Of a stretch of 64,000 nucleotides of DNA, positions 39,406 to 56,632 are shown piece after piece. A program made the translations under genes and the position numbers. Below the pieces are notes generated by a model. The model had not been told where the DNA came from, ran no database searches, and was given only the letters and a program-made list of their open reading frames with translations. Within the stretch, counting starts at the first letter, position 1. Every line of letters starts with the position of its first letter. This stretch comes from Candidatus Omnitrophota bacterium (GTDB lineage Bacteria > Ratteibacteria > UBA8468 > B48-G9 > DTJG01), in NCBI GenBank assembly GCA_023818965.1, contig JAMWCD010000006.1:205475-269474 (forward strand). The letters run 5' to 3'.

Positions 39406-41157
39406 ATGAAAATAGGCAAGCAAAGGCGACTTGTTTTTGATTTTGGGACATACCATATTCGTGCTATTGAAATCGCGCCAGGTAGAAATGCCAAAAAGTT
39501 CACAATTAACTACTACCAGCAATATGATACCCCACCATTTGCATATGATGCGAGAATTCCTGTTCTCAGGACAGAAGGGAATGAATTTATAAAATCACTT
39601 GGTGTCAAAAGGGCAGCAGTTTCTCTTCCTGGCAGGGGCATTCTTATCAGAGCCATTACTGTACCAAAGGTTCCTCTCGGAAAATTGAGGGACATTCTTA
39701 AATTTGAAATCCAGCAGCAGATTCCATTTCCGATTGAGGTTGTTGCCTGGTCATATCAAATTATTTCTGAATCAGATAAAAGTTTTCAGGTTTTGTTGTG
39801 TGCTGCAAAAAAAGACCTTGTTAATGATTTCATTGCTCATCTCTCACCATTTGCACTAACAATTGAAACCCTTGATACGGATTTCTTCGCCATTTACAAT
39901 CTTTTCCGGATATCACCTTTTTATAAGTCAGATGAGTGTCAGGCAATTCTTGATATTGGTGCTCAAAGTGCAAACCTCATTATAAATCACCAGGACAGAA
40001 TCTTAATGAGGTCATTAACTACAACAGGTGACAGTATTTCGTCCACACTGGCAGAATCAAAGAAAATTGAATTTACTGAAGCAGAAAAAATAAAAATTGA
40101 ACAGGGTATGAAATCATCTGAAATATCCTCACTTGTGGACTCCCTTAATACAGAACTGCAGAATTCAATTGACTACTGGCGCTTTACATTAAAAGGTCCT
40201 GAATTAAACAGATTTTTTATTTGTGGTGGTACTTCAAAAATGATTGGTTTAAAAGAATATCTTGAACAGAAACTCAGGGTTCCTGTGGTTTATCTTGATC
40301 CACTTATGTTCTGTGATGTTGACCCTGAATATCAGGAATATCTTGCCGATAAAGGTCCTGAAATTGCTACTGCCTGTGGTATTGCATTAAGGACAATTAA
40401 ACTTAACCCAATTGAAATTGATATGTTGCCTGTTGAGATTATCAGAATGAGAGAATTTGCTGAAAACAGGCCTTATATATTTTTATCCACAATAATGGCA
40501 GTGTTGCTCACATTGACACCACTGTTTTTCTTGAGAATAGAAAAAACCGGTTATGAGAACTATAAAAAAGAACTTGAGACATCCCTGCAGGAATATGAAA
40601 AGTTTAAACCACAGGTCGAAGCCCTTCAGAAAAGTATTAATGATGTGAAAGGCAAGATTGGAGTTGTTCAGGACTTATTTGAAAAAAAAGCATTATGGCT
40701 TGCAAGAATCATTGAAATTGGCAGTAATCTACCAAGCAGTAGAATTTACCTGAACAATATTTATCCTTCAGGAACTCAGGTTGCTCAGGCTGCTCCTGCA
40801 CCGGCTCCTCAACCGGGACAGCCACCCGGACCTCCTGGTCCTGGAGCAGGTACACCACCTCCACCAGGAGCACCTGGTACTGCAGAGCCACCACCTGCTC
40901 CGGTAGCAGCTCCACAGCCGGCTCCACAACCATCAGCGCAAACAGGGGCACCTTCAACATTACCTGAAAAGATAGATGTACTGACCCTTGAAGGTGAAGC
41001 AATTGCAACCGATATTAGAAGTGCTTTTTCTGATTTGAAATTTTTTGTTCAAAGACTTTCAAGTTTGCCATTTTTTTCTGAGGTTGTTATAAACTCATGT
41101 GAACTTGACAGGGAAACAGGTAAACTGAAGTTTCTTCTAACTGCAAAGATAAAATGA
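39406..41157 (+). CDS. type IV pilus assembly PilM-PilN fusion protein
   Basis: 583 aa. Residues 1 to about 340 form an actin-like PilM ATPase fold (VFDFGTYHIRAIEI...FICGGTSKMIGL). After that come a TM helix (IFLSTIMAVLLTLTPLFFL), a coiled coil, a Pro-rich linker (APAPAPQPGQPPGPPGP...), and a PilN-like periplasmic domain. Confidence 0.75.
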   Translation: MKIGKQRRLVFDFGTYHIRAIEIAPGRNAKKFTINYYQQYDTPPFAYDARIPVLRTEGNEFIKSLGVKRAAVSLPGRGILIRAITVPKVPLGKLRDILKFEIQQQIPFPIEVVAWSYQIISESDKSFQVLLCAAKKDLVNDFIAHLSPFALTIETLDTDFFAIYNLFRISPFYKSDECQAILDIGAQSANLIINHQDRILMRSLTTTGDSISSTLAESKKIEFTEAEKIKIEQGMKSSEISSLVDSLNTELQNSIDYWRFTLKGPELNRFFICGGTSKMIGLKEYLEQKLRVPVVYLDPLMFCDVDPEYQEYLADKGPEIATACGIALRTIKLNPIEIDMLPVEIIRMREFAENRPYIFLSTIMAVLLTLTPLFFLRIEKTGYENYKKELETSLQEYEKFKPQVEALQKSINDVKGKIGVVQDLFEKKALWLARIIEIGSNLPSSRIYLNNIYPSGTQVAQAAPAPAPQPGQPPGPPGPGAGTPPPPGAPGTAEPPPAPVAAPQPAPQPSAQTGAPSTLPEKIDVLTLEGEAIATDIRSAFSDLKFFVQRLSSLPFFSEVVINSCELDRETGKLKFLLTAKIK

Positions 41158-42077
41158 AAAAAATACTGAGTTTTTTAAAAAAGAATCTTGTTTTTGTTTT
41201 CCTTGTGATTGTTCTTGGGCTACTGGGTTTTGGGTTTAATCTTATAAGAAAGACGCAGCAGGAACTTAAGAAGATGGAAGAAGAGATAAAGGCGAAACAT
41301 GATGAAATAAGAAAGTATGAAACTCAGAAAGAACTGGCACCATCACCAGAACTTGTCAATAAATTGCAAAAACAATATACTGCGGTTGCAGAACAGTTTA
41401 ACTCTCTGTTAAACCGTTTTTCCACAACCTATCCAGCAGTACCTGAGTTTAAGGTTTTCCCGAATGTTGAATTTAAGGAATTTCTTTTTGAGACAGGAGA
41501 CCAGTTAAAAAAGAAAGCCAAAAAGAATAATGTAATTATACCCTCATCCTTTGGATTTCAGGAGACAGGTTTTCCATCACCTGACCAGATACCATTATTT
41601 TCGTTACAGATTACTGTAATCAAGCATATTCTTGACCTGCTTATTGATTCAGGTATCAGTGTTGTTAATTCGGTTGTCCCTGGTATTCCATCAACGGTTG
41701 CTTTTTATAAAATCCTTCCTCTTGATGTATCAATTACAGGAACAAGCATTGAAATTATCAGGTTTTTAAGATACCTTAACAATCCTTCATCATTCTTCAC
41801 ACTTGAAAGTTTTGCTGTGACAAAGAAGGACACAGGTTTATTTCAGGGGAATTTTAAAATCAATGCTGTGATGATTGAAAAAGCAGCCGCAGTTGTTACT
41901 TCTGAAATACCAAAAGGGACACAGCCTTCTGCACAGGGAGCACCAGGAAGTCCTTCCGGGCAGCCACAGGGAGTACCAGGAAGTCCTCCTGGAGTTCCCC
42001 AGCAGCCACAGAAAGTACCAGGACACCCTGCTGGTGTTCCCGGGCAGCCACAAGCACCACCTAATCCTGTTAAATAG
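41154..42077 (+). CDS. PilO-like inner-membrane pilus assembly protein
   Basis: 307 aa. N-terminal TM helix, coiled coil, periplasmic alpha/beta domain, and a Pro/Gln-rich tail. Lies in the PilO position, translationally coupled to pilMN. Confidence 0.55.
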   Translation: MKKILSFLKKNLVFVFLVIVLGLLGFGFNLIRKTQQELKKMEEEIKAKHDEIRKYETQKELAPSPELVNKLQKQYTAVAEQFNSLLNRFSTTYPAVPEFKVFPNVEFKEFLFETGDQLKKKAKKNNVIIPSSFGFQETGFPSPDQIPLFSLQITVIKHILDLLIDSGISVVNSVVPGIPSTVAFYKILPLDVSITGTSIEIIRFLRYLNNPSSFFTLESFAVTKKDTGLFQGNFKINAVMIEKAAAVVTSEIPKGTQPSAQGAPGSPSGQPQGVPGSPPGVPQQPQKVPGHPAGVPGQPQAPPNPVK

Positions 42078-42085
42078 GGATACTT

Positions 42086-44695
42086 ATGCAAAAAGATTTT
42101 ATTTCAAAGTGGAAGAATGCGGATAGAAAAGGTAGAAAGAAAATTCTGTGTGATTTTATTGCAGCAAAAAGAAGACAAAAAACAAATGTTTCAGATACAA
42201 GAAAAAAAATCTCATTACAGAATAAATCTGCGAGAAAACCTGTTTTGTCCTGTCTACCGAAGATTCCTGAAATTAAAAGACATGCCCTTGCATTTTGCTT
42301 TTCCTCATCCTCAGATTCACCGACTGGAGCAAGAGATGATAACATTCAGGATTCAGGCGGTGAAGACCAGCCACCAAAGTCGCCTGAAGAACCTTCAAGA
42401 AAATCAAATATGAATGTCGATAAAGGTCCTGAAATTAAAAAAGACAAAGCCCGCCAGGATAAAAAGCAATTACTGATTAGATTTATTGAAGAAAAGAAAA
42501 GGGAAAAAGAAATTGCACAGAAGCAGCGACATGCAGAGAAAGAGGCGAGGAAGAAGTTAGCAGAGGAAGCCAGGAGGCAGGCGCAGGAGAAACTGGCGAT
42601 AGATGCAGAGGCGAGGCGGCAGGCGAAGCAATTGCGTCGGCAGGAGTTATTGAAGGCAAAGATAGAGAGAGAGATAAAGGCGAAAGCAGAGAGGCAGGCA
42701 AAGATAGAGGCGAAGCAGAAGGAGAAGGAGGCGATAGAGAAGAGCCGTCAGGTTGAGCTAGAGGAGAGGAAGAGATTAGTTGAAGAGGCATTGAAATTAA
42801 GGAAGCAGAAGAAGGAATTGCTTGTAGCATACCTTAATGGAATAAGAAGCAAGAGGGAGATAGAGCAGAAGCAACGACTTGCAGAGAAAGAGGCGAGGAA
42901 GAAGTTAGCAGAGGAAGCCAGGAGGCAGGCGCAGGAGAAACTGGCGATAGATGCAGAGGCGAGGCGGCAGGCGAAGCAATTGCGTCGGCAGGAGTTATTG
43001 AAGGCAAAGATAGAGAGAGAGATAAAGGCGAAAGCAGAGAGGCAGGCAAAGATAGAGGCGAAGCAGAAGGAGAAGGAGGCGATAGAGAAGAGCCGTCAGG
43101 TTGAGCTAGAGGAGAGGAAGAGATTAGTTGAAGAGGCATTGAAATTAAGGAAGCAGAAGAAGGAATTGCTTGTAGCATACCTTAATGGAATAAGAAGCAA
43201 GAGGGAGATAGAGCAGAAGCAACGACTTGCAGAGAAAGAGGCGAGGAAGAAGTTAGCAGAGGAAGCCAGGAGGCAGGCGCAGGAGAAACTGGCGATAGAT
43301 GCAGAGGCGAGGCGGCAGGCGAAGCAATTGCGTCGGCAGGAGTTATTGAAGGCAAAGATAGAGAGAGAGATAAAGGCGAAGGCAGAGAGGCAGGCAAAGA
43401 TAGAGGCGAAGAAAATTTCTCCGAAAGTAAAGCCACCAGATATCAGACCAGAAAAAAGAAAAAAATTACTTTCCTTTATCAATGATCTGAAAGCAAAATA
43501 TCAGCAGGAAGTCATAAGACAGAAGATTGCAAAAGATGCCTTGAGGAAGCAAAAAGAAATTGCGGTTCTTGCATTAAAACAGGAAAGGCAGGCAAAAGCA
43601 ATTCAGGCAGCCGAATTCAGGGCACGGAAAAAACAAATTGAACTCCAGAAAAAAGAACTTCTCAAGGCAGAATTACTTCTTGCTGCAAAAAGAAAAGCAG
43701 AAGCAAAGGCAGTTGAGAAATCACGCAAAGAATATGAAAAACAGATTAAGGATTTTTCATCAAAAATTACTGGTGCTGTTTCAAATGTAAGCAAGTTGAC
43801 TGGGGCTGCTCTTACATCAGCAATTTCTTCTGTAACTCCATTTGTTAAGAAAGCCCAAAGTATTAAGGTCCCTGCTGCTGAAAAATTTGCAAAACCTGAG
43901 ATTGTTCCTGCAGAAGTTCCTGCAAAAGCAATACCTGCAAAAGCAGAAAAGGCAAAAAAGTACAGAGAACCAGTAAAGATTGGACCACTGTTGAGAAAGA
44001 ATGCATTCAGAATTCTTTTCTTGCTTTTACTTTTGATGTGGCTTGGCGAAATTTTGTTTTATTCACTGAGATGGCGACCGCCAAGGGAAAAGTTTGAGGA
44101 AATGTTTGGTTCTGAAGAAGCAAAATCCAGTAAAACAGGTTCTACTGAAATAACAGAGGCAGAAACAAAAATAGCAGAATATAAAATTCCTTCCATTAAC
44201 ATTGAAGGGAAAAGAGACCCATTTTCAAGTGGATTGTTGACAATGGAATTGATGAAAAAACCGAAACCAACAGAAATTGTAAAGGCATATCAACCCGAGA
44301 TTATTACAATTTCAAGAGCACCATCAATTGTTTCCTCCAGTGTTCAAAAACCTATAAGAGAAAAGGCAGAAAAGATTACACCGATTCTGAAACCAGAGAA
44401 ACCCGAACCAGCCACTGCAACATTGTCTGAGGCAACAACAACAAAGATACTTCCACCTGCTCCTGTTTCAAAACCTGAAGTTTCGCCATTGATTGTTCCA
44501 CAGATTGAGTGTAATCTTATCTACAGGGGTAGTTTGATTATGGAAGGGATTGAATATATTTTCCTTGAAGGCAAACAGAGAACATACAGGGTAACAGTTG
44601 GTGATGTTGTAGAAGGTTTCAGGATTCTGAAAAAAGAAAAGGGAGTGCTCACATTATCAAAGGAAGGAGTTATAATTGAAATTCCTGCTGAATAA
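42086..44695 (+). CDS. 869-aa bitopic protein: long E/K/R-rich helical N-terminal region containing tandem repeats, one TM helix, a Pro-rich linker, and a C-terminal PilP/GspC-HR-like beta domain
   Basis: No signal peptide. About 640 aa of KEKE-type charged helix. TM at FRILFLLLLLMWLGEILFYSL. The C-terminus (ECNLIYRGSLIMEGIEYIFLEGKQRTYRVTVGDVVEGFRILKKEKGVLTLSKEG) resembles the PilP / GspC homology-region fold. Sits in the pilP position between pilO and pilQ. Confidence 0.5.
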   Translation: MQKDFISKWKNADRKGRKKILCDFIAAKRRQKTNVSDTRKKISLQNKSARKPVLSCLPKIPEIKRHALAFCFSSSSDSPTGARDDNIQDSGGEDQPPKSPEEPSRKSNMNVDKGPEIKKDKARQDKKQLLIRFIEEKKREKEIAQKQRHAEKEARKKLAEEARRQAQEKLAIDAEARRQAKQLRRQELLKAKIEREIKAKAERQAKIEAKQKEKEAIEKSRQVELEERKRLVEEALKLRKQKKELLVAYLNGIRSKREIEQKQRLAEKEARKKLAEEARRQAQEKLAIDAEARRQAKQLRRQELLKAKIEREIKAKAERQAKIEAKQKEKEAIEKSRQVELEERKRLVEEALKLRKQKKELLVAYLNGIRSKREIEQKQRLAEKEARKKLAEEARRQAQEKLAIDAEARRQAKQLRRQELLKAKIEREIKAKAERQAKIEAKKISPKVKPPDIRPEKRKKLLSFINDLKAKYQQEVIRQKIAKDALRKQKEIAVLALKQERQAKAIQAAEFRARKKQIELQKKELLKAELLLAAKRKAEAKAVEKSRKEYEKQIKDFSSKITGAVSNVSKLTGAALTSAISSVTPFVKKAQSIKVPAAEKFAKPEIVPAEVPAKAIPAKAEKAKKYREPVKIGPLLRKNAFRILFLLLLLMWLGEILFYSLRWRPPREKFEEMFGSEEAKSSKTGSTEITEAETKIAEYKIPSINIEGKRDPFSSGLLTMELMKKPKPTEIVKAYQPEIITISRAPSIVSSSVQKPIREKAEKITPILKPEKPEPATATLSEATTTKILPPAPVSKPEVSPLIVPQIECNLIYRGSLIMEGIEYIFLEGKQRTYRVTVGDVVEGFRILKKEKGVLTLSKEGVIIEIPAE
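42500..43408 (+). repeat. 2.7 copies of a 348-bp (116-codon) in-frame tandem repeat; copies 2 and 3 are essentially identical at the nucleotide level
   Basis: Repeat unit (Q)KQRLAEKEARKKLAEEARRQAQEKLAIDAEARRQAKQLRRQELLKAKIEREIKAKAERQAKIEAKQKEKEAIEKSRQVELEERKRLVEEALKLRKQKKELLVAYLNGIRSKREIE. The mirrored antisense ORFs at 42483, 42834 and 43182 confirm the 348-bp period. The coding strand is purine-rich and GC-rich relative to its surroundings. Confidence 0.9.
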
Positions 44696-44739
44696 CTTGA
44701 CTTATGTTCAATTATCACGGTATAATACATGGAGGGAAA

Positions 44740-46635
44740 ATGAGAGGAATTAAAAAGACAAAAATCGCATTATTATGTTTTTCGCTGGCACTCTGGGGAT
44801 ATGTCTTACCTTCAATGGCTCAGACAACAAAAACATTTGCCACTTCCACAACAGAACTTGACCTTCTTTATAGCGATGCCATCAAAAGTTATTATCAAAA
44901 GGACTATGCAAGAGCAATAGCGCTTTTTAAACAGATCCAGGGTCTTTCTCCTGAATATAAAAAATCGCAGATCAACCATTATGTCAGAACTGCTGAAAGT
45001 CGTCTTGGCAAGACAACTCCTGTTACTGTTTTCAAGGTTCCTGGACAGCCGACAAAAGAAATAGAAATTAATAAAGAAGGTGAACTTGAAGCAATGGCTG
45101 AAGAAGCACAGAAAGTGCTGCTAAATACAGCCAGTTATCTGGATTCAGTAGAAAAAGAAGGCAAACTAACTGAGTTTCAACTTGTTGGTCCGAAATCATC
45201 CTTGAAAATGGCAAAAGAAGCATATGAAAACAGTCAATACACAGAGGCGATACGACTTGCCAATAAAGCAAGATTCCAGATTGACCAGTTTATTACTCAG
45301 AAAAAACCAGGTATCGTTCTTGGAAAATATGCTGACTATCCTGTAACACTGAATCTTACAGATGCAGATTTAAGCCAGACATTAAAATTGATTTATGATT
45401 TAACAGGTGCCAATATTGTATTGATGCAGGGTATTACCGGAAGGGTTTCAATCAATGTCAAGGACCTTCCCCTTCAGAGGGTTCTTGATCTTATATGTGA
45501 GGCGAACAATCTGAAGTATGTTGAGGACAATGGTGTAATAAAAATAATGACAGCAGAAGAATTTAATAAGTCCGCTGCAGCAGTGAAAGCGCGGTTGCGC
45601 AGGGTTTTCCAGGTTTACTATGGAGATGCCTTCAGTATAATGAAGGCACTAAAAGAAACATATCCAACTCAGACGATTGTTCATGATCCAAGAACAAATT
45701 CAATCATTGTTGAGGCATCTGATGAAGAAACTGCCGCAAGAATTGGAGAGATTGTTTCTTCACTTGATACACCGATTTCTCAGGTACTGCTTGAGGCAAA
45801 ACTTGTTGAAATTGTACTTTCTGATGAGAATACATTTGGTATTGACTGGCTTGTAAGTTCACGACTTGTTTCTGCTCTTGGTTCAGGCGGAACTCTAACA
45901 GGACCAAGATTCGGGGATAATCCGAATTTTACTCCTGGAGTATCCTCTTCCTTACCTCAGGGAACATTTTCTTTTGGAATAACAAATTATGATGTAAATG
46001 CCTTGATTCAGGCATTAAGTGCAAAGGGACAGGTGAAACTATTGCAGGCACCAAAGATTATGTGTCTCAATGGTACAACAGCAGTGATCAGTGTACAGAC
46101 AAACGTACCATATTTGATACCCCAATCAACTGTATCACAGCAGCAGCAAACCATTACGACAACCGCAACATTCAATGTTTTTGAAGACCAGGTTGGAACA
46201 GAGTTTACTGTTACTCCTATTATTCAGAGAAACAGGAGTATCTTTTTGAACCTTAACATCTATGATGCACGTTTGATAGAAATTAAACGATTGACAGCAA
46301 TCGCAGGAGGACAGCAATATTCAACAGACCAGCCCGTGATTTCAAACAGGGAAACAAACCAGAGTATTGTTGTTTATGATGGTCAAACCTTGATTATCGG
46401 TGGTATGATTCAGGATAGGAAAGAACTTAAAACTACAGGTGTTCCTTTTCTCCAGCATATACCACTATTGGGATATCTTTTTAAGAAACCAAGTTACAGC
46501 AGTGCAAAAAGTGAGATGTTACTGTTTTTGACACCAAGGGTAGTAAGTACATATGAGGATGCTAATGCTGTCAGTAAGCCAGATGTACAAAAACTGGACA
46601 AAAAGATTGATGCCGGTATTCTTGAAAAGTACTGA
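44740..46635 (+). CDS. pilQ: PilQ-type secretin
   Basis: Signal peptide, TPR-like helical segment, secretin N domain (VTLNLTDADLSQTLKLI...), secretin core (VLLEAKLVEIVLSDENTFGIDW), and the C-terminal signature GVPFLQHIPLLGYLFKKPSY...LLFLTPRVV. Confidence 0.85.
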   Translation: MRGIKKTKIALLCFSLALWGYVLPSMAQTTKTFATSTTELDLLYSDAIKSYYQKDYARAIALFKQIQGLSPEYKKSQINHYVRTAESRLGKTTPVTVFKVPGQPTKEIEINKEGELEAMAEEAQKVLLNTASYLDSVEKEGKLTEFQLVGPKSSLKMAKEAYENSQYTEAIRLANKARFQIDQFITQKKPGIVLGKYADYPVTLNLTDADLSQTLKLIYDLTGANIVLMQGITGRVSINVKDLPLQRVLDLICEANNLKYVEDNGVIKIMTAEEFNKSAAAVKARLRRVFQVYYGDAFSIMKALKETYPTQTIVHDPRTNSIIVEASDEETAARIGEIVSSLDTPISQVLLEAKLVEIVLSDENTFGIDWLVSSRLVSALGSGGTLTGPRFGDNPNFTPGVSSSLPQGTFSFGITNYDVNALIQALSAKGQVKLLQAPKIMCLNGTTAVISVQTNVPYLIPQSTVSQQQQTITTTATFNVFEDQVGTEFTVTPIIQRNRSIFLNLNIYDARLIEIKRLTAIAGGQQYSTDQPVISNRETNQSIVVYDGQTLIIGGMIQDRKELKTTGVPFLQHIPLLGYLFKKPSYSSAKSEMLLFLTPRVVSTYEDANAVSKPDVQKLDKKIDAGILEKY

Positions 46636-46707
46636 TAAACTGATCACTGACAAAAAACGTCTAAAAATAGAAAGCCGTGGAAGCAAAAATACGGCAGGAG
46701 GTGTGAT

Positions 46708-47514
46708 ATGAAAAAAATTGCTGCATTGGTTCTGATTCTGGTACTTGTGTTTTTCTGTATTGATTTGTTTGCTCAAACAACATCAACAAGGACTTCAACT
46801 TCAACCGGTTCATCAAGAACGAGTTCCCGGACATCAAGGACAGGGACAGGTAGTACTTCGGGTTACGATACTACTGGTAGTGCGGACTTTGTTATTTCAG
46901 CTATTGCAGGCATGTTAAGACATCGTGACAAAGAAGTGAGAATACAGGCATTGCAGGCACTTGTTGGTGGTATGACACTTGGAACTACAACAACATCCTC
47001 GTCTTCAACAACCAGTACAGGGATTGGAGATATTTTTGGAATGAGGGGAGGAGGAACCACAACTTCCTCTTCCAGTTCGACTTCTGTCCAGGGACTTGGA
47101 ACTACTGTACTTATTCCTGAATTTTTTACAATGCTCTCTGACCCAGACCCTGAAATCAGGGACCTTGTTTCAATTGCCCTTGACCAGATCTTTGGTACAG
47201 ATGCAAGTTTAATCAGGTTTCTTCATGACCCGGATCCTGTTGTGAGAAAATATGCAATGAGATTATTTGTAATCAGAACCAGGGAAGATAGCCAGTATCG
47301 AACAACAACATCATCATCTTCAGGAACAACATATACAAGAAGTGCCAATGATATTTTGATTATGAGAATTCTTTTGAATATGATGAAAGACCCTGACCCT
47401 GATGTGAAAAAGGTTGCAACTGATGCTCTTGAAAAATTCATTTCTGACCTTGAAAAAAGATACGAAAGTACTATGGGAACAGGTCAACCAGGTGTTCAGC
47501 AACCACTGAGATAA
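46708..47514 (+). CDS. small secreted protein with Ser/Thr-rich low-complexity linkers and three HEAT/PBS-lyase-like repeats
   Basis: Signal peptide. Poly-S/T/R tracts (TSTRTSTSTGSSRTSSRTSRTGTGSTSG, TTTTSSSSTTSTG, TTTSSSSSTS). Three DPDP-x-[VI][RK]..A..AL motifs (DPDPEIRDLVSIALDQI, DPDPVVRKYAMRLF, DPDPDVKKVATDALEKF). Confidence 0.5.
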   Translation: MKKIAALVLILVLVFFCIDLFAQTTSTRTSTSTGSSRTSSRTSRTGTGSTSGYDTTGSADFVISAIAGMLRHRDKEVRIQALQALVGGMTLGTTTTSSSSTTSTGIGDIFGMRGGGTTTSSSSSTSVQGLGTTVLIPEFFTMLSDPDPEIRDLVSIALDQIFGTDASLIRFLHDPDPVVRKYAMRLFVIRTREDSQYRTTTSSSSGTTYTRSANDILIMRILLNMMKDPDPDVKKVATDALEKFISDLEKRYESTMGTGQPGVQQPLR

Positions 47515-47535
47515 TTTAATAATTTTGGGAGAACA

Positions 47536-49095
47536 ATGCTATCAAAAAAATTTGTACTGTGTCTTGTATTGATGTTTTCAGTTTGTTCTTTTGCACAGAA
47601 GCAATTTACATTGAATTTTAATAATGTTGATATACTGACATTTATTAAACTTGTCAGTGAGTTCACAGGTGAAAACTATGTCATTGACCCTGCTGTGAGA
47701 GGAAGTGTAACAATCATTTCTCAAAAACCTGTTGAAAGTGAAAAATTATACCAGGTTTTTCAGGCAGTATTGAATCTTTATGGATTCACAGTTGTGAAAA
47801 GGGATAGTGTTTCATTTATCATTCCTTCGACAGATGGCAGAGCAAGGTCTCCAGTTGTTAACTATGGAGATATTGGCGATGACAAACTTGATATACATAT
47901 CACCCAGATTATTCCAATGAAATATTATACGGCTGACACTGTGACTCAGATTTTAACACCATACATTTCAAAGGCAGGACAGATTTCTTTTGATAGTAGA
48001 AGTAACACAATCTTTATTTCTGACTTTGGCTCAAATATAAAAAAAATTCTTGAAATAGTCAGGGCAATTGACCAGCCAAGTCCTCCAGGAAAAGAATCAT
48101 TAAGGGTCTTTAAACTTCAAAATGCTAATGCTGAGGATGTTGCAAAAACACTTAGTGATATTCTTGCCAAAAAAAGGGTTCAACCAGCAAGACCAGGTCA
48201 GGTTATTGTTCAACCTGCAGTCGTTTCTGTGAAATCGACAAATTCTTTGATTGTTTATGCTGAAGCAGATGATTTCACCAATATCGAAGGGCTTATTAAA
48301 GAACTTGATGTAATGACAAATCAGGTACTCATAGAAGCATTGATTGCTGAAGTTTCTTACAAGAGAGAACAGGACATAGGGATACAGTGGGCAACAGTTC
48401 AGGATTTTCACCATGATAAGTATTCTGGTTCTGCACAAACAAAGTTCGGGGTTGAAAACGTTACAAATGGCTTACTTATCGGTTTTACAAATGCCCAGAG
48501 TTTAATTGATTATGTAAAAATAGCACTATCAGGAAAAGATACACAGTTTAAGATTTTAAGTACTCCCCAGATTATGACAGCAGATAATACAGAGGCAACA
48601 ATCAATGTAAGTGAAAATACACCTTATTTGAAAGAAACAAGGTTTACAACAGGAACCGGTGGTACTGGTACTGATACAATAAGAAGTTATGATTACAAGG
48701 ATGTCGGAATTATTCTGAAAATAACACCACAAATCAGTCAGGATAGATATGTTCGTTTGAAATTGCATCAGGAAGTCACAAAGGTTATTACTGAAAACAC
48801 TGAAGGAGCATTAACAACAGCCAAACGTGAGGCAGATACCACACTGATTGTCCCGAACCATCAAACAGTTGTACTTGGAGGTCTAATTCGTGATGATAAT
48901 GAAAATACCATTAACAAAGTCCCTTTTCTTGGAGATATCCCTGGAATTGGAAAATTGTTCAGAAGGGAAACAAAAGGTAGTGTAAAAACGAATCTTTTGA
49001 TTTTTATCACGCCTCGTATTATTACGAATTTTGAAGAAGCAGAAAGAATAAAGCAAGAGAAGGAAAAAATTTTTAAAAATGAACAGAAAAATTAA
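47536..49095 (+). CDS. gspD: GspD-type secretin (type II secretion outer-membrane channel)
   Basis: Signal peptide, GspD N0 domain (FNNVDILTFIKLVSEFTGENYVIDPAVRGSVTIIS), N1-N3-like repeats, secretin core (VLIEALIAEVSY...GIQW), and the C-terminal VPFLGDIPGIGKLFRRE...LLIFITPRII. Confidence 0.85.
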   Translation: MLSKKFVLCLVLMFSVCSFAQKQFTLNFNNVDILTFIKLVSEFTGENYVIDPAVRGSVTIISQKPVESEKLYQVFQAVLNLYGFTVVKRDSVSFIIPSTDGRARSPVVNYGDIGDDKLDIHITQIIPMKYYTADTVTQILTPYISKAGQISFDSRSNTIFISDFGSNIKKILEIVRAIDQPSPPGKESLRVFKLQNANAEDVAKTLSDILAKKRVQPARPGQVIVQPAVVSVKSTNSLIVYAEADDFTNIEGLIKELDVMTNQVLIEALIAEVSYKREQDIGIQWATVQDFHHDKYSGSAQTKFGVENVTNGLLIGFTNAQSLIDYVKIALSGKDTQFKILSTPQIMTADNTEATINVSENTPYLKETRFTTGTGGTGTDTIRSYDYKDVGIILKITPQISQDRYVRLKLHQEVTKVITENTEGALTTAKREADTTLIVPNHQTVVLGGLIRDDNENTINKVPFLGDIPGIGKLFRRETKGSVKTNLLIFITPRIITNFEEAERIKQEKEKIFKNEQKN

Positions 49096-50620
49096 TCTTT
49101 CACTAACCAGTGAAGAAATTGAAAAACTTATTGACTCTGAATTGCTTCCAAAATTTCCATATTCTTTTCTTGAAAACTTTTCACTTTTACCATTAAGGGA
49201 TGCTCCTGGCAGGGTGTTATTTGCAACAAGCGACATTTCAAAAATTGATGCAGGAGAAATTGAACAATTTACAGGAAAAAAGGTTTCATTTGTGATTGTT
49301 GATAAACAGATTATTAGTGAACTTCTGAAAAAACATTATTACAATCCTGCATCATCCCAGAAAATCATTCAGGAATTAACACGTGATGAAGCAATGTTTG
49401 AAGAATCAATTCCAGAAGAACTTCCTTCACAAAATGGAGACCTTCTCGATCTTGCAAATCAAGCCCCTATTATACGACTTGTCAATCAGATTTTTTACAG
49501 GGCGATTTTGATGAGGGCAAGTGATATTCATCTTCAAAGTTTGGAAAACTATCTCAAGGTAAGATACAGGATTGATGGAATGCTTCATGATGTTCTCACA
49601 CTCCCTGCAAAATATCAACCTGCTGTGATTTCAAGGGTAAAAATCATTTCTGACCTTGATATTGCAGAAAAAAGAATTCCGCAGGATGGAAGAACAACAA
49701 TCAGAATTGATGATAGACAGATTGATGTGAGGGTATCAATTATTCCAACCTTTTTCGGAGAATCTGCAGTTTTGCGTTTACTTGACCAATCAACATATAA
49801 TTTTGGACTTAATGAACTCGGTTTTTCTGAAAATGATCTGGTGAGATTTGACAGGTTAATCCATTACGACCATGGAATAATACTTCTTACAGGTCCAACT
49901 GGTAGTGGAAAAACAACAACACTGTATGCGGCTCTTTCAAGGATTAATAATCCCCAGATTCATATTATTACGCTTGAAGACCCTGTTGAGTATCAACTTG
50001 ATGGAATTAACCAGATACAGGTTAATCCAAAGGTAGGACTTACATTTGCCAGTGGATTGCGTTCAATTTTGAGGCACGACCCTAATGTTATTATGGTTGG
50101 AGAAATACGAGACAGGGAAACAGCAGAAATGGCAATTCAGGCATCTCTTACAGGACATCTTGTTTTCAGTACCCTTCATACGAATGATTCGACAAGTTCC
50201 ATTACTCGTCTTCTTGATATGGGCATAGAGCCATATCTTATTGCTTCCTCTGTCATTGGAATTATTGCCCAGCGACTGGTTCGCCTTAATTGTGTTAAGT
50301 GTTCTGAACCTGTTTTGTATCCTGACGAACTTTTAAGGGAAATTGGACTTGACCCTTCTGCTGATGGATATAATTTTAAAAAGGGAAAAGGTTGCGAAGT
50401 TTGTTTAAATACGGGCTATCACAAAAGAACAGGTATTTTTGAATTTCTTGAAATTGATGACGAAATTCGTAATCTTATTATGAAGCAGGTTTCAGCAGGA
50501 GAAATCAGAAGATATGCCCTCAGCAAAGGATTGAGAACCTTACGGATGGATGGAGCAAGAAAGGTTGCTGAAGGGCTTACAACAATCAGTGAAGTCCTCA
50601 GAGTAACCCAGGAAACCTGA
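49079..50620 (+). CDS. gspE: GspE/PilB-family secretion ATPase
   Basis: 513 aa. Walker A (LLTGPTGSGKTTTLYA), Asp box, Walker B, His box, and a tetracysteine zinc motif (CVKCSEP...CEVCLNTGY). Confidence 0.9.
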   Translation: MNRKINLSLTSEEIEKLIDSELLPKFPYSFLENFSLLPLRDAPGRVLFATSDISKIDAGEIEQFTGKKVSFVIVDKQIISELLKKHYYNPASSQKIIQELTRDEAMFEESIPEELPSQNGDLLDLANQAPIIRLVNQIFYRAILMRASDIHLQSLENYLKVRYRIDGMLHDVLTLPAKYQPAVISRVKIISDLDIAEKRIPQDGRTTIRIDDRQIDVRVSIIPTFFGESAVLRLLDQSTYNFGLNELGFSENDLVRFDRLIHYDHGIILLTGPTGSGKTTTLYAALSRINNPQIHIITLEDPVEYQLDGINQIQVNPKVGLTFASGLRSILRHDPNVIMVGEIRDRETAEMAIQASLTGHLVFSTLHTNDSTSSITRLLDMGIEPYLIASSVIGIIAQRLVRLNCVKCSEPVLYPDELLREIGLDPSADGYNFKKGKGCEVCLNTGYHKRTGIFEFLEIDDEIRNLIMKQVSAGEIRRYALSKGLRTLRMDGARKVAEGLTTISEVLRVTQET

Positions 50621-50621
50621 A

Positions 50622-51818
50622 ATGCCGGTATTTTCCTACGATGGCTTTGATAGGCAGGGGAAACATGTTTCTGGCAGAATTGAAGCCGATAATATTTCCA
50701 TTGCCAGAGCCATGGTTAAGGAAAATGGTATCTTTATAAAAAAAATTGTTCCTTTCAATCAGCCCAAACGTTTTCGCACTGAAAAGGTTAAAATGGATGA
50801 TTTTGCGCTTTCAATAAGAGAACTTGCTACATTGCTTAATTCAGGATTAACCCTTGATGAAAGTGTATCAGGAATTATTGCCCAGATGAAGGAAGGGAAA
50901 CTTAAAGATGTTTATACAGATATCCAGAAGCAAATCAGGGAAGGTAAAAGTTTTTCAAAGGCAGCATCACAGTATCCTGAACTTTTTTCAGATATCTCTC
51001 TTTCAATGATAAAGTCAGGAGAGGCAAGTGGAACACTTGGACTGGTCCTTGAGCACATTGCAAAATTTTTGGAAGAATCAATTTATTTCAAAAATAAGGT
51101 TCTTGGTATTATGACCTATCCAATTATGATGGCTATTGTTGGCACATTTGTCTTGATTTTTGTCTTTACTTTTGTTACACCAACAATCACAAGAATTTTT
51201 TCAGAAATTTCCCTTAAACTGCCTTTACCGACACTTATTCTGATAAAGTTTTCATCTTTTTTAAGGCACTACATCCTTGCAGTAATTGCATTTATACTGA
51301 TTGCAGTATATCTTATTGCAAGATACATTCATTCAGAAAAAGGAAAAGCAAGTTTCGCAAGATTTAGAAGGAAAATTCCATACCTTGGTGAGATTTTTTT
51401 CAAAAGTGAGATTGCAAACTTTACTGGTACTTTAGGAACACTTCTTCAAGGAGGTGTTGAAATTCTTACCAGTTTCAACATTGCACAGGAGGTTGTATCG
51501 AATCCTGATTTAAGACAGCAGATTGACAGGGCAAGAGACCTGATTTCACGTGGACAAAGTGTTTCATCTGCACTTCGTAAAACAACAATGTTTCCTTACA
51601 CTGTCATTCAACTGATTTCAGCAGGGGAAAAAAGTGGAACAATGCCACAGATGTTGATGAAAATCTCTGTAAATTTCAAAGAGGAAGTTTCTCAGAAGGC
51701 AACAAGATTCGTAACAATTCTTGAACCATTTATGATTCTTTTTATGGCTGTAATTGTGGGTTTTGTAGTTATTGGAATCATGCTGCCGATTTTTCAAATC
51801 AGTCAGAGTATAAGATGA
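50622..51818 (+). CDS. gspF: GspF/PilC-family inner-membrane platform protein
   Basis: 398 aa. Two repeated GspF domains separated by TM helices, plus the conserved start PxFxYxGxDxxG. Confidence 0.9.
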   Translation: MPVFSYDGFDRQGKHVSGRIEADNISIARAMVKENGIFIKKIVPFNQPKRFRTEKVKMDDFALSIRELATLLNSGLTLDESVSGIIAQMKEGKLKDVYTDIQKQIREGKSFSKAASQYPELFSDISLSMIKSGEASGTLGLVLEHIAKFLEESIYFKNKVLGIMTYPIMMAIVGTFVLIFVFTFVTPTITRIFSEISLKLPLPTLILIKFSSFLRHYILAVIAFILIAVYLIARYIHSEKGKASFARFRRKIPYLGEIFFKSEIANFTGTLGTLLQGGVEILTSFNIAQEVVSNPDLRQQIDRARDLISRGQSVSSALRKTTMFPYTVIQLISAGEKSGTMPQMLMKISVNFKEEVSQKATRFVTILEPFMILFMAVIVGFVVIGIMLPIFQISQSIR

Positions 51819-51893
51819 AAAGTTTATTTAAACCATTTTTTAATTTCCCATTTTACAAAGGTGGATAAAGGAGGATTTTAACAGGGAGAACAT

Positions 51894-52349
51894 ATGAGAA
51901 ACAGAAAAGGATTTACCTTCATAGAATTGATGGCTGTTGTAATAATTCTTGGAATTCTGGCAATGTATGTAATGCCAAAGATATTTGGAAGGGTTGACGA
52001 AGCAAAGGTAACTGCAGCAAAGATTCAGATAAAAAGCTTTGAACAGGCACTAAAACTTTTTTATCTGGATAATAATTTCTATCCTTCTACAGAACAGGGT
52101 CTTGAGGCTCTTGTAGAAAAACCAACAACAGGAAGGATTCCTGAAAAATGGCGAGAAGGTGGATATCTTGAAAAAAAGTCAATTCCTCTGGACCCATGGG
52201 GACATCCTTATGTATATTTATCCCCGGGAAGAAATGGTGAGGACTATGAAATTATTTCATACGGGAAAGACGGTCAGGAAGGTGGAACAGGATATGATGC
52301 AGACATCTCAAGCAGTGAAATTGAACCCACAGAAAAACCATCTCAATAA
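51894..52349 (+). CDS. gspG: major pseudopilin GspG
   Basis: RKGFTFIELMAVVIILGILA prepilin leader, and the GspG-specific body ...EQGLEALVEKPT...LDPWGHPYVYLSPGRNGEDYEIISYGKDGQEGGTGYDADI. Confidence 0.9.
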   Translation: MRNRKGFTFIELMAVVIILGILAMYVMPKIFGRVDEAKVTAAKIQIKSFEQALKLFYLDNNFYPSTEQGLEALVEKPTTGRIPEKWREGGYLEKKSIPLDPWGHPYVYLSPGRNGEDYEIISYGKDGQEGGTGYDADISSSEIEPTEKPSQ

Positions 52350-52808
52350 AGGGTTTACGCTTTTTGAACTGATGGTAGTAATCCTCATTATTAGTTTTTT
52401 TTTGTCAACATGGCTCGCTACTCAACATTTTCTTTTGAAGAAAAAACCAAAATTCCTGAGATTGAGGAAATCATCAATCAAGCAACCAGCACATCTTTAA
52501 GTTCTGGAAAGCCATATATTTTATTTTTCAACATTGATGAACAATCGTATGTCCTGGTTGAAAGAGACCAGACAATTTTAAAAAATGTTCCTGATGGGGT
52601 TTCTTATAACAAACTATCAGGAGATTTTAAAATCATTCGTATCACAGTAAATGGCTATAACTATGAATCAGGTTGTCCTGGAATTACATTTTTTGCTGAT
52701 GGAAGTCGGGAATATGCAGAGATTGAATTAGAAAGTATTGAAGGAACAAGGTGGACTGTTGTTTTGAATCCTTACTCATCAGTTGCCGAAATTACTCAAT
52801 CATCGTAA
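52294..52808 (+). pseudogene. gspH: GspH-like minor pseudopilin interrupted by a frameshift in a T10 homopolymer (52393-52402)
   Basis: The prepilin leader NKGFTLFELMVVILIISFF is in the frame of ORF 52159..52500. The C-terminal body (ORF 52410..52808) is in another frame. Inserting one T in the T10 run joins them as ...ISFFFVNMARYSTFSF... Confidence 0.5.
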
Positions 52809-53191
52809 TGAAAAGAAAAACTGGTTTTACGCTTCTTGAAGCAATGGTGGCAGTTGGAATATTTGCAATACTTGGTATTGTTTGTCTTGAAAATTATCTT
52901 CTTAATGCAGGTATTGCCCAGAAGATTATTGATGACCAGACATGTTTGATTCTTGCCAGGCAAAAGGAATTTGAGTACTTACAGAATCCTGAAAATATAA
53001 GTGAAACAGGTGATTTTGGAGATATTGACCCAGAAGCGAAATATCAAATAGAGACAAGTGATATATCAGTAAGTGAAACTGTGACTGTTGACAGTGAAAT
53101 TACTCTCAACTTTACTGTTGTGAGGATGATTGTGAAAAAAAGAAGTTCAATGGTTTCTTATCCTTTTTTAATAAAACCAGCGACAGAATAA
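52808..53191 (+). CDS. gspI: GspI-like minor pseudopilin
   Basis: MKRKTGFTLLEAMVAVGIFAILGI leader. About 127 aa, the typical size for GspI. Confidence 0.65.
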   Translation: MKRKTGFTLLEAMVAVGIFAILGIVCLENYLLNAGIAQKIIDDQTCLILARQKEFEYLQNPENISETGDFGDIDPEAKYQIETSDISVSETVTVDSEITLNFTVVRMIVKKRSSMVSYPFLIKPATE

Positions 53192-53212
53192 AAACAGCAA
53201 GGATTTTTTGAA

Positions 53213-53764
53213 ATGATGAATTACACAATGGAAAAAAAGAATGCAGGTTTTACATTGATGGAGATGCTTGTAGTTATTGTGATTGGTTTTATTATTGTAC
53301 TTCTTGTTTATCAGACGATGCAATCAACAATTCGTGTTTCTGCGGTAATACAGGAAAAAATTACTGATATGCAAAGAGTGAATTTTTTTCTCACATCATT
53401 TTCATCCCGTTTATTATGTATTGTTCCTGACAGCAAGAACAATAGTTTTACCAGCAGTAAAGTTTCCATTGAACTGGACGAATATAATTCAAGAAAAATT
53501 ATTACCTATGAAATTGAACCAGATGAAACAGGAAAATTTGGCCTTACTGTTGGTGAAAAGGATATTCTATTAAATACAGAGTGTTCATATCCTGGATTGA
53601 GTGGTCTTGATAGCATAGAATTTTCATTTTTTGATGGTGATTCGTGGTTGACTGATTGGGATAAAGATACATTACCACAGGGAATAGCCATTACATTTGT
53701 GAGAAATGGTTCTAAAATATTTTTTCCTGTGAAACTTGACATTCAAAGTGTGCAGGAAACATAA
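53213..53764 (+). CDS. gspJ: GspJ-like minor pseudopilin
   Basis: KKNAGFTLMEMLVVIVIGFIIVLL leader and a GspJ-like C-terminus (...WLTDWDKDTLPQGIAITF). Confidence 0.65.
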   Translation: MMNYTMEKKNAGFTLMEMLVVIVIGFIIVLLVYQTMQSTIRVSAVIQEKITDMQRVNFFLTSFSSRLLCIVPDSKNNSFTSSKVSIELDEYNSRKIITYEIEPDETGKFGLTVGEKDILLNTECSYPGLSGLDSIEFSFFDGDSWLTDWDKDTLPQGIAITFVRNGSKIFFPVKLDIQSVQET

Positions 53765-53785
53765 TGATGAAATTCTCATTTTCCT

Positions 53786-53940
53786 CTTTTCCACCTTCCC
53801 TTCAGGAAGGAGGGAATGCAAGGGGAGGTTGAAATCTCCCAAAAATCCCCCTCTGTCCCCCTTTGAAAAAGGGGGAAGAGAAGGGGGATTTTAGAAAAGG
53901 GGGCAATAGAGGGAAAAATTGAATGGAAGGGGAATTTACA
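53786..53940. repeat. cluster A of G/C-rich hairpin repeats (C5T3-loop-A3G5 family) in the gspJ-gspK intergenic spacer
   Basis: ccttcaggaagg palindrome, tccccctttgaaaaaggggga hairpin, and repeated gggggatttt / aagggggaa motifs. Strongly G/C-biased compared with the flanking AT-rich DNA. Confidence 0.6.
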
Positions 53941-53998
53941 AGAGGGTAAAAAATATGGTTAAGTTTGGCAGAACCAAAAAGAATATGGAGTTAAACAG

Positions 53999-54898
53999 AT
54001 GAAAAATGGTTTCATACTCATTACCACGCTGGCATTTCTTGCAATTCTTGCTGCAAATGCTGTGCTACTATCGGATTTTATTAGATTTCGTGCTGAACTT
54101 CAACACAATCAGAATGCACAGTTTCTTGTTGACAAAATTGCAAGGGCAGGAATCAGTGCAGGTGAAACAATTTTACTTCTGGATAAAAACTCATATGACT
54201 GGTTTACTGATATATGGGTGAAGCCAAAACATCTTGAGTTTCCTGAAGGAAGTGTTGATATTACCATTGAGCCACTTGATACAAAATTCAATGTTAACAG
54301 TATTATTGGTCGTGATAAATCAATAAACACTCAGGCAAAAAACATTTTCAGTAATCTTTTGTCTGTTATGGGTTTTCCTTCATCCCTTCTTGATACACTG
54401 CTTGACTGGCTTGATAGCGATGATTTTCCAGGAGTTTTCGGAGCAGAATCAGAATATTATGCAACCCTTGTACCACCGTATAAACCTGCCAATGGACCTT
54501 TGAATGATACATTTGAACTTGCGTATATCAAAGGGTTTACACCTGAAATTTTAATCCGTAGCGGAGAAAGACCAGGGCTTATTGATTTGCTTACAATCTT
54601 TTCTGATAATAAAATAAATGTTAATATGGCTGACCCGATAATATTACAGGCACTCGGGTATTCATCTGCTTCTGTTGAGAAGATTTTGAATGAAAGAGAA
54701 CTCAGACCATTAACAATGAATATTCTTATGAGGATTGACAGACGGACGACAGGATCTCTTACAAGGGTAATAAAATTTTCAAGCAGTTTTTTTAAGATCA
54801 CTGCCCATGCAACATGTGCTGGAATTTCATCTACGCAATCACTTGTTGTTCAGAGGGCAAATAACAAAATCACAAGATTGAGATGGGAAAGAAATTGA
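53999..54898 (+). CDS. gspK: GspK-like minor pseudopilin
   Basis: 299 aa. N-terminal hydrophobic prepilin-like segment (GFILITTLAFLAILAANAVLL) and a GspK-like body (KFNVNSI...ADPIILQALG). Confidence 0.7.
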   Translation: MKNGFILITTLAFLAILAANAVLLSDFIRFRAELQHNQNAQFLVDKIARAGISAGETILLLDKNSYDWFTDIWVKPKHLEFPEGSVDITIEPLDTKFNVNSIIGRDKSINTQAKNIFSNLLSVMGFPSSLLDTLLDWLDSDDFPGVFGAESEYYATLVPPYKPANGPLNDTFELAYIKGFTPEILIRSGERPGLIDLLTIFSDNKINVNMADPIILQALGYSSASVEKILNERELRPLTMNILMRIDRRTTGSLTRVIKFSSSFFKITAHATCAGISSTQSLVVQRANNKITRLRWERN

Positions 54899-56148: not shown

Positions 56149-56632
56149 TTACAAAAATTTGTTGCTTGGGGGCTTTCTTATTCTACTGTTGCTTTATCAA
56201 TTTGTTTGTGCGCCAGGCATAAGAAAGATCAAAGGCCTCAACAAAACATATATTCAGAAGCAAAAAGAACTTGAAACATTGAACAATTTAATATCCCAGT
56301 ATAAGGCAAGGACAACTCAATCAACCACCTTGTTTGCTCCTTCCAATTTCAACCTTTATCTTTTTGTTTCTAAATCCATTGATATGATTGATTCAAAGGC
56401 ACGTATTTCAAGAATAACACCCGTGACAGAAAGTATTCTCTTAAATGCCATTGAACAACACATTACAATTGGAATTGAAGAAATTGAACTTGAGAAACTT
56501 TTAATGTTGCTTGATGAAATTGAGAAAAGGGACTTTTTGAGATATGGTTATCTTCAGATTTCTCGCAATGCCCAGAAACCCTTTGTTGTTAAAGCAGAGA
56601 TGGAAATTATTTCTTATAAGCCAGTCCAATGA
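56135..56632 (+). CDS. gspM: GspM-like inner-membrane protein
   Basis: 165 aa. Single N-terminal TM helix (LLLGGFLILLLLYQF) and a small periplasmic domain. Positional inference. Confidence 0.5.
   Translation: MKKINYKNLLLGGFLILLLLYQFVCAPGIRKIKGLNKTYIQKQKELETLNNLISQYKARTTQSTTLFAPSNFNLYLFVSKSIDMIDSKARISRITPVTESILLNAIEQHITIGIEEIELEKLLMLLDEIEKRDFLRYGYLQISRNAQKPFVVKAEMEIISYKPVQ

Follow-up and report, generated by a model that had tools for sequence, protein, structure and literature searches.

A signal-peptide-bearing HEAT-repeat protein encoded beside a PilQ-like secretin in Candidatus Omnitrophota: a candidate secretin accessory

The window considered here is a stretch of 64,000 nucleotides from a Candidatus Omnitrophota bacterium of the Ratteibacteria lineage (assembly GCA_023818965.1, contig JAMWCD010000006.1). 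It carries an operon with two secretin genes, and between them lies a gene for a HEAT-repeat protein, at 46708..47514 on the plus strand, as are the other window genes and gene parts given below. On its 5' side is the gene for a PilQ-like secretin, termed Sec1 (44740..46635), and on its 3' side the gene for GspD, the T2SS (type II secretion system) secretin (47536..49095). The open reading frame (ORF) of the HEAT gene starts with an ATG at 46708, ends with a stop codon at 47512-47514, and encodes 268 amino acids plus the stop. An AGGAGG ribosome-binding site can be read from the sequence at 46696..46701, 6 nt 5' of the ATG. The product is identical to NCBI protein MCM8806007.1, recorded as [quoted passage not shown] Only 72 nt separate the gene from Sec1 and 21 nt from GspD (11-12 nt in locus L001), and no terminator-like site is found between the three genes. 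An initial annotation of this DNA had already described a 268-aa ORF with a signal peptide, its own AGGAGG site, and tight spacing between a PilQ-like secretin and gspD, and these descriptions are borne out. It had also proposed that the protein is an accessory of a secretin. The position of the gene, which proves to be near-constant across related loci, indicates that the protein is probably a new, lineage-specific helper of the Sec1 channel.

The protein consists of an export signal, four helical repeats, and three low-complexity tracts. Its N terminus, MKKIAALVLILVLVFFCIDLFA|QT, is composed of MKK, a 15-residue hydrophobic core, and DLFA|QT, and the family alignment places the signal peptide at aa 1-23 (46708..46776), ending in DLFA|Q. 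It is a Sec signal peptide of typical form, with a site of the signal-peptidase-I type at which cleavage is predicted. The first low-complexity tract follows at aa 24-55 (46777..46872), with 22 Ser or Thr among 32 residues and a net charge of +3. The first repeat, R1 (aa 56-91; 46873..46980), is degenerate and lacks DPDP, having instead MLRHRDKEVRIQALQAL at aa 69-85. Its invariant residues in the family alignment are RH, R78, Q80, and Q83. A linker rich in Ser and Thr (22 of 38 residues; aa 92-129; 46981..47094) then leads to the tandem repeats R2 and R3 (aa 130-198; 47095..47301), which contain DPDPEIRD and DPDPVVRKYA, are the most conserved region of the family, and hold most of its invariant columns. 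Embedded in the linker is a conserved hydrophobic motif, GIGDIF, at aa 105-110. A short second linker (aa 199-212; 47302..47343; 11 of 14 residues Ser or Thr) precedes the last repeat, R4 (DPDPDVKKVATDAL; aa 213-258; 47344..47481), which includes the stretch that best matches the Pfam HEAT model, aa 218-246. Together the three tracts are Ser or Thr at 55 of 84 positions. DPDP does occur three times, at aa 145, 174, and 228, as the initial annotation had noted, but the repeats total four once R1 is counted. Likewise, Ser/Thr tracts do interrupt the repeats, but not each from the next: R2 and R3 are contiguous, and the tracts divide the protein into R1, R2-R3, and R4.

The protein belongs to the HEAT repeat superfamily, with Pfam scores far above what chance would give: PF02985 (HEAT) matches the window protein with 64.4 bits against a cutoff of 23.5 (E=3.5e-18), PF13646 (HEAT_2) with 38.7 against 27.7, and PF13513 (HEAT_EZ) with 38.4 against 27. 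No enzymatic or adhesin domain was found in it. The PBS-lyase HEAT-like model NblB (NF045915) was rejected as a description of the protein, which scores 18.2 bits against an equivalog cutoff of 300. Structure prediction, one of the checks proposed at the outset, yields four HEAT-type helix pairs. An AlphaFold2 (AF2) monomer model from 16 sequences was too poor (predicted local distance difference test, pLDDT, of 48), while a second run with 100 sequences reached 65.5. In the latter, the helix pairs form tandem helix-turn-helix units with pLDDT of about 80-89 (about 80-87 in R2-R3), located in precursor numbering at about aa 56-70 and 75-91, 131-142 and 148-162, 166-172 and 177-199, and 208-226 and 231-258. 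The three tracts (aa 24-55, 92-129, and 199-212) have no predicted structure, and neither has the C-terminal tail, with pLDDT under 50 throughout (in both models for the first tract); the GIGDIF region includes a short helix at mature residues 84-87. A Foldseek search against PDB returned only HEAT, ARM, and alphaRep or designed binder proteins, all weak (best E 2.9e-3, TM-score about 0.3) and none related to secretins. A sequence profile search of PDB similarly returned only generic or synthetic HEAT proteins, ARM proteins, and importins, with no secretin partner among them; the best match was the synthetic alphaRep 9sah (E=4.6e-11).

Is this protein peculiar to one genome? A word-indexed search turned up 24 homologues, and 110 members (E<=1e-15) were recovered with a profile. 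These are 150-375 aa long, named only "HEAT repeat" or "hypothetical," and all come from metagenome-assembled genomes (MAGs) labelled Omnitrophica, Ratteibacteria, or simply "bacterium." An exhaustive hidden Markov model search of 1.84 billion representatives clustered at 50% identity gave about 25 full-length family clusters (E<=1e-19), below which scores fall off sharply, leaving only local matches to generic, long HEAT proteins. The family is thus real, conserved, and narrow, and the ORF is kept in sister genomes down to about 30% identity, so the concern that it might be non-conserved there does not apply. Family members share the order of parts described above: a signal peptide ending at an [AGS]|Q-T site, then a low-complexity tract, R1 with the signature RH(P)…R.Q..Q, a linker with the motif G-[IV]-x-x-[IL]-F, and the R2-R3 core. 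The family was accordingly defined by a signal peptide, a tract, R1 (RHP..VR.QA.Q), and R2-R3 (DPDPE[IV]RD...DPDP.VR.YA) in a gene directly 3' of a Sec1-family secretin, a definition that fits the window protein, which served as the reference.

The tracts keep their position across the family, though not their chemistry. Most members have Ser/Thr-rich tracts, whereas those of proteins P0018-P0022 and of locus L012 are rich in Asn and Asp (23% in the latter). The tracts are therefore best regarded as disordered, flexible spacers in which length and position matter more than chemistry. Of the two functions first suggested for them, that of a flexible linker agrees with the disorder in the AF2 models, while O-glycosylation is not supported as the reason for their conservation.

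Some records carry unexpected taxon labels. For contigs with the conserved gene cluster (L011, L012, L017, and L021) the labels read Vermiphilus sp., candidate division TA06, and Elusimicrobia, and for individual Sec1- or HEAT-family proteins (P0256 and P0355) they read Firmicutes and Pacearchaeota. Errors of binning or labelling are the probable cause, and record titles are therefore no guide to how widely the family is spread among taxa.

The evidence that ties the protein to Sec1 comes from gene order. Two collections of loci were assembled, one by searching the HEAT alignment against contigs from one genome per species (24 loci) and the other by searching the Sec1 alignment against metagenome contigs (80 loci), the latter being unbiased with respect to HEAT. 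All were annotated with the window proteins, the HEAT profile, and the proteins of locus L031. Deduplication left 58 Sec1-family loci with GC contents of 29-61%, of which 53 include at least 350 nt 3' of Sec1. A full-length family gene lies directly 3' of Sec1 in 50 of these 53, a shortened form ("mini-HEAT") in 2, and neither in 1; some form of HEAT gene therefore adjoins Sec1 in 52 of 53 loci (about 98%). Restricting the count to loci ascertained through Sec1 (n=29) gives 26 full-length, 2 mini, and 1 with none. What lies further 3' is more variable. GspD follows the full-length HEAT gene in 40 loci, GspE without GspD in 2 of the 53 distinct loci, the end of the operon in 1 (L065), and the end of the contig in 6; in 1 more the HEAT gene is broken by a run of Ns. 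Mini-HEAT is followed by GspC in 2 loci, and in the remaining locus (L074) Sec1 is followed directly by GspC, an arrangement also seen in L071, which is too short to be counted. No family member occurs in about 35 outgroup loci with ordinary PilQ-type secretins (<=28% identity to Sec1), and no copy outside the Sec1 context was found among the 110 members with visible neighbours. Homologues, then, are neither widespread nor unlinked to secretion loci: there are some 25 clusters in 1.84 billion representatives, with the gene directly 3' of a Sec1-family gene wherever its neighbours can be seen.

To which of its two neighbours does the HEAT gene belong? Loci L017, L022, and L023 have the order Sec1-HEAT-GspE, with no GspD or remnant of it detected by tblastn. 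In L065, from a lineage with 61% GC, the order is PheT, PilMN, PilO, coiled-coil gene, Sec1, and HEAT, followed by convergent genes, with no adjacent T2SS genes. That HEAT is kept without GspD in the former and without adjacent T2SS genes in the latter indicates that it goes with Sec1 rather than with GspD or the T2SS core. The description of the gene as wedged between two secretins consequently gives GspD too much weight.

The deepest Sec1 lineages, at about 40% identity, carry a true GspC gene between Sec1 and GspD. The GspC of L031 scores 33 bits with PDZ_2, above the cutoff, and 26 bits with T2SSC, for which the cutoff is 27. In L031, L073, L078, and L081, the GspC gene is preceded by mini-HEAT. 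This protein of 120 aa begins with a signal peptide, carries a short tract of Ser, Arg, and Asp, and has two repeats of HEAT-like type, which hhalign aligns collinearly with the family's R1 and R2 (probability 84%, E=7e-6). L074 has neither a HEAT gene nor, upstream of Sec1, any PilMN, PilO, or coiled-coil gene. In the main clade GspC is lost: none of the 50 loci with a full HEAT protein of four to five repeats has a GspC match in the recovered sequence, and no GspC-like ORF is present in the operon of the window or elsewhere in its 64 kb. GspD is lost in addition in the three loci mentioned above. These arrangements suggest that a small, two-repeat protein arose beside Sec1 and that in the main clade, the one in which GspC was lost, it grew to four or five repeats and gained long linkers.

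How does the protein compare with known partners of secretins? Pilotins are outer-membrane lipoproteins with a lipobox and an invariant Cys at +1; they bind their cognate secretin, at the S-domain or the C terminus, and are needed for its assembly or targeting. A pilotin was one of the roles first proposed, and the lipobox was to be checked. Of the 52 family proteins recovered from the loci, 48 were recognised as having a signal peptide that ends at an [AGS]|[QEA] site (Q-T in most). Cys18 of the window protein is not conserved, Cys is almost never present in mature family proteins, and only 3 of the 52 contain a string resembling a lipobox, located within the hydrophobic core. Classical pilotins of the PulS, AspS, MxiM, PilF, and TadD classes are ruled out on these grounds; unlike them, the protein has no lipid anchor and hence no access to the Lol route by which pilotins are defined. 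TsaP has an N-terminal LysM peptidoglycan-binding domain plus FlgT-like domains. Neither a TsaP-like factor nor a peptidoglycan-spanning adaptor, both also proposed, is supported: at E<=0.1, searches with Pfam and NCBIfam gave no match to a LysM, AMIN, SPOR, or OmpA-type domain. TsaP itself is a periplasmic accessory that decorates or anchors its secretin (bioRxiv 10.1101/2020.05.29.123786), and GspB/OutB is described as another (PMC9239104); both are peptidoglycan-linked secretin scaffolds. The HEAT protein differs from both in having no peptidoglycan-binding domain, and no homology to either was detected.

GspC is built from an N-terminal membrane anchor, a homology region (HR; PF11356), and either a PDZ domain or a coiled coil. 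Like GspC, the HEAT protein is encoded immediately 5' of gspD, but it has no membrane anchor, and a GspC homologue is ruled out by the absence of any T2SSC (HR) or PDZ match. Small partners such as BfpG are likewise encoded beside the secretin gene. BfpG is a small exported protein found in complex with BfpB, the secretin of a type IVb pilus (PMC12531336). The HEAT protein resembles it in size, predicted export, and gene position, may act in a similar way, and differs in having HEAT repeats, with no relation in sequence or fold detected. With the HEAT proteins of the PBS-lyase type and with alphaRep it shares the same repeat of about 31 aa (DPDPxVR..A..AL). Those proteins, however, are cytoplasmic or synthetic, uninterrupted, and without a signal peptide, while this one is interrupted and predicted to be exported. 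No HEAT-repeat partner of a secretin, and no secretin system of Omnitrophota or Ratteibacteria, was found in a search of open-access text, in agreement with the early remark that no established secretin partner has this composition.

α-Solenoid proteins are a recurrent solution among secretin assembly factors. Secretin channels usually need dedicated helpers, and these vary between systems (PMC10499894). TadD, for example, an α-solenoid of tetratricopeptide repeats (TPRs) with a PilF-like fold, encircles the RcpA secretin and holds in its concave groove the four residues at the C-terminal end of RcpA (PMC10499894). As with TadD for RcpA and PilF, PilW, and Tgl for PilQ, a small α-solenoid is encoded here with one secretin, the C-terminal tip of which is conserved. 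Unlike these TPR proteins, with which no shared ancestry is detectable, it has HEAT repeats (PF02985), these are interrupted by long disordered tracts, and the association is suggested by gene context.

On this background, the protein may be a soluble periplasmic α-solenoid serving as a dedicated accessory of Sec1, a reading drawn from gene context to which we assign about even confidence. It would be made from the same transcript as Sec1, exported by Sec, cleaved at LFA|QT, and left without a lipid. The four repeats could then provide a protein- or peptide-binding scaffold on Sec1 or on the assembly that Sec1 forms, with R2-R3 as the conserved core, the three tracts acting as flexible spacers and GIGDIF possibly as a second docking element. 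The most likely role would be to help or stabilise assembly of the secretin multimer or, alternatively, to form a peripheral periplasmic layer; it would be comparable to that of TadD and PilF on RcpA and PilQ, minus the lipid anchor. What the analysis shows is the gene, its export signal, the HEAT fold, the disordered tracts, a narrow family, and a near-obligate adjacency to Sec1; physical binding to Sec1, the site of binding, and an effect on assembly are inferred from these. Between loci, HEAT proteins are 32-40% identical, compared with 45-59% for Sec1 and 62-64% for GspE, and their rate of change is similar to that of GspK, GspL, GspM, and the coiled-coil protein of the operon. A near-obligate adjacency to Sec1, operonic coupling, a rate like that of GspK/L/M, and a narrow phyletic range are in keeping with a peripheral, partner-specific part of a machine rather than a substrate. 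As to where it might dock, Sec1 ends (46597..46632 in the window) in a strongly conserved tip, G-[IL]-[LMI]-x-[KR]-[FY]-COOH. All 58 loci have an aromatic residue at the very end of it and 53 of 58 a Gly at -6, and the tails of GspD in the same loci are not conserved. By analogy to RcpA and TadD, it is plausible, if weakly so, that the tip is a docking peptide.

Several observations weigh against the proposed partnership with Sec1. The tip of Sec1 and its N-terminal extension occur in the HEAT-less loci L074 and L071 too, so neither tracks the presence of HEAT. Alternatively, the C-terminal aromatic residue may be a signal of the outer-membrane-protein type, recognised by the β-barrel assembly machinery (BAM). 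Mirror-tree analysis, using the domains of Sec1 and of GspD, gave partial correlations (given GspE) of 0.49 for HEAT-Sec1 and 0.43 for HEAT-GspD, with 0.52 for the GspD-Sec1 control; all envelope parts co-vary, and Sec1 and GspD are not separated as partners. Most of the invariant residues belong to the structural HEAT consensus (DPDP..R) and do not mark a specific binding surface. The AF2 model is itself moderate (mean pLDDT 65.5, predicted TM-score 0.50), and packing between the repeats is uncertain. The case for a partnership with Sec1 rests wholly on gene context. The first idea of a secretin accessory thus finds partial support: in its general form, as opposed to a stray HEAT protein, it is borne out, but the specific analogies through which it was expressed fail, and the proposed partner is Sec1, not both secretins.

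Could the protein instead have taken over the role of the lost GspC, either in coupling GspD and the T2SS to Sec1 and the PilMNO-like module or in recruiting cargo in the periplasm? Its gene sits in the canonical gspC slot, immediately 5' of gspD, and in the deepest lineages a true GspC holds that slot, alone (L074 and L071) or after mini-HEAT (L031, L073, L078, and L081). Full-length HEAT and GspC are mutually exclusive, with none of 50 loci having both in the recovered sequence and no GspC in the 64-kb window, and the N0 domain of the window GspD is intact (87 bits). Replacement nevertheless seems unlikely: the HEAT gene stays in L017, L022, and L023, where GspD is gone, and in L065, which has no T2SS genes next to it; the occurrence of mini-HEAT together with GspC shows that one does not simply stand in for the other; and a cleavable signal peptide takes the place of a GspC-type membrane anchor, with no HR or PDZ domain. 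A broader proposal is that the operon encodes an undescribed type IV filament machine of Ratteibacteria/Omnitrophota, in which one T2SS motor and pseudopilin set serves two secretins and the HEAT protein is a lineage-specific periplasmic connector that makes GspC, and sometimes GspD, dispensable by coupling Sec1 to the apparatus. We consider this quite improbable. If true, it would represent a new way to span the periplasm, with an α-solenoid and disordered spacers in place of HR-domain proteins.

The other explanations place the protein outside of the machine. It might be cargo, an exoprotein or sticky surface protein that leaves via Sec1 or the T2SS, with Ser/Thr tracts that are mucin-like and possibly glycosylated. 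A Sec signal peptide is what T2SS substrates carry, such substrates are sometimes encoded beside gsp operons, Ser and Thr make up about 30% of the mature protein, and there is a weak compositional match to New_glue (E=2.4e-4; 21 bits, under the cutoff of 31). Yet a strict one-to-one adjacency to Sec1 over GC contents of 29 to 61% would be unusual for fast-turnover substrates, and the gene lies in mid-operon with gaps of 11-72 nt on both sides. The lack of an enzymatic or adhesin domain and the varying tract chemistry (Asn/Asp-rich in L012 and P0018-22) also speak against cargo, which we likewise consider quite improbable. Finally, the protein might have nothing to do with a secretin, being instead a periplasmic protein for general chaperoning or envelope maintenance that was kept by inheritance within one clade. 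All the evidence for a link is positional, the loci derive from one related group of MAGs, so that adjacency may reflect a single inherited event, and the mirror-tree co-variation is uninformative. Such a coincidence would, however, have to account for an adjacency that outlasted the loss of GspC, the loss of GspD, separation from the T2SS genes, and the presence or absence of PilMN and PilO genes, with no copy out of context among the 110 members whose neighbours are visible; we hold it to be very unlikely.

If the link to Sec1 is real, a non-lipidated HEAT-repeat helper would represent a new class of secretin helper, and Sec1 plus HEAT would offer a concrete pair with which to study secretin assembly from uncultured candidate phyla. 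Practical impact is limited, as the organisms are uncultured and the functional claim is positional. The protein is also the marker of an unusual operon: one set of T2SS genes is shared by two secretins, GspD and one of the PilQ-like type, and GspC, and sometimes GspD, has been lost. Such a two-secretin operon, from which GspC and then GspD progressively disappear, is more out of the ordinary than the HEAT protein.

The operon extends from 39406 to 56632, flanked by pheST and polA, and encodes, in order, a PilM-PilN fusion, a PilO-like protein, an 869-aa coiled-coil protein, Sec1, HEAT, GspD, GspE, GspF, GspG, three minor pseudopilins, GspK, GspL, and GspM. Two different secretins thus share the operon with genes for just one T2SS ATPase, platform, and pseudopilin set. 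Sec1 (631 aa, counted from Met13 of the longest ORF) has STN/N0, Secretin_N, and Secretin domains, together with a signal peptide, a TPR-like or otherwise helical N-terminal extension, and the conserved C-terminal tip ending in GILEKY. It is 100% identical to MCM8806006.1, annotated as hypothetical, and scores below the NCBIfam cutoffs for both PilQ and GspD. Its longest ORF starts at 44704 (643 aa), compared with the ATG at 44740 of the 631-aa NCBI protein. The latter start is favoured, considering the length of the NCBI protein and the position of the signal peptide, with cleavage predicted after SMA, at residue 39 of the long form. GspD (519 aa) is a clear T2SS secretin, scoring 432 bits with TIGR02517 against a cutoff of 351. 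The genes for GspE, GspF, GspG, the three minor pseudopilins, GspK, GspL, and GspM occupy 49079..56632 and were assigned by domain search and from orthologous loci.

Upstream of Sec1, the PilM-PilN fusion (39406..41157) is a protein of 583 aa with a long Pro/Ala/Gly-rich tract. The PilO-like protein of the Amuc_1100 family (41154..42077) was identified through PF28028 matches to its orthologues in L003 and L006; it ends in a Pro/Gln/Gly-rich tract that derives in part from a 42-nt tandem repeat (41960..42052). The order of PilM-PilN, PilO-like, coiled-coil, and Sec1 genes is the same in at least 20 loci. A pili-like cluster, Amuc_1098-Amuc_1102, has been described in Akkermansia (PMC5332112). 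The order from Amuc_1101 to Amuc_1098, namely a PilM/FtsA-like protein, an Amuc_1100-family protein, a large hypothetical protein, and a secretin, is like that of the window, but Sec1 is not a member of the Amuc_1098 family (75 bits against a cutoff of 750).

The 869-aa protein (42086..44695) is a bitopic, coiled-coil membrane protein that matches no Pfam family. It has a single hydrophobic segment at aa 641-661, and its orthologues range from about 554 to 869 aa. A 348-nt tandem repeat in its gene (42518..43411; 2.6 copies, 99% identity) encodes a coiled coil rich in Lys, Glu, Arg, and Ala and gives rise to a spike of GC and AT skew there. Its C-terminal domain (aa 805-869; 65 aa; 44498..44692) is strongly conserved and is duplicated in L031. 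An HR domain of the PilP/GspC type was considered for these last 65 aa and is unsupported, there being no sequence match in PDB, no Pfam match, and an E value of 0.12 in hhalign against the GspC alignment. Another HEAT protein turned up in L065, where a region at 12064..13575 encodes a second HEAT_2 protein, unrelated to the first, of 258 aa and with a hydrophobic segment at its N terminus. Directly 3' of it is a gene for a pseudopilin-like protein that carries an N-terminal methylation motif, so that HEAT proteins may have become paired with type IV filament genes on a separate occasion.

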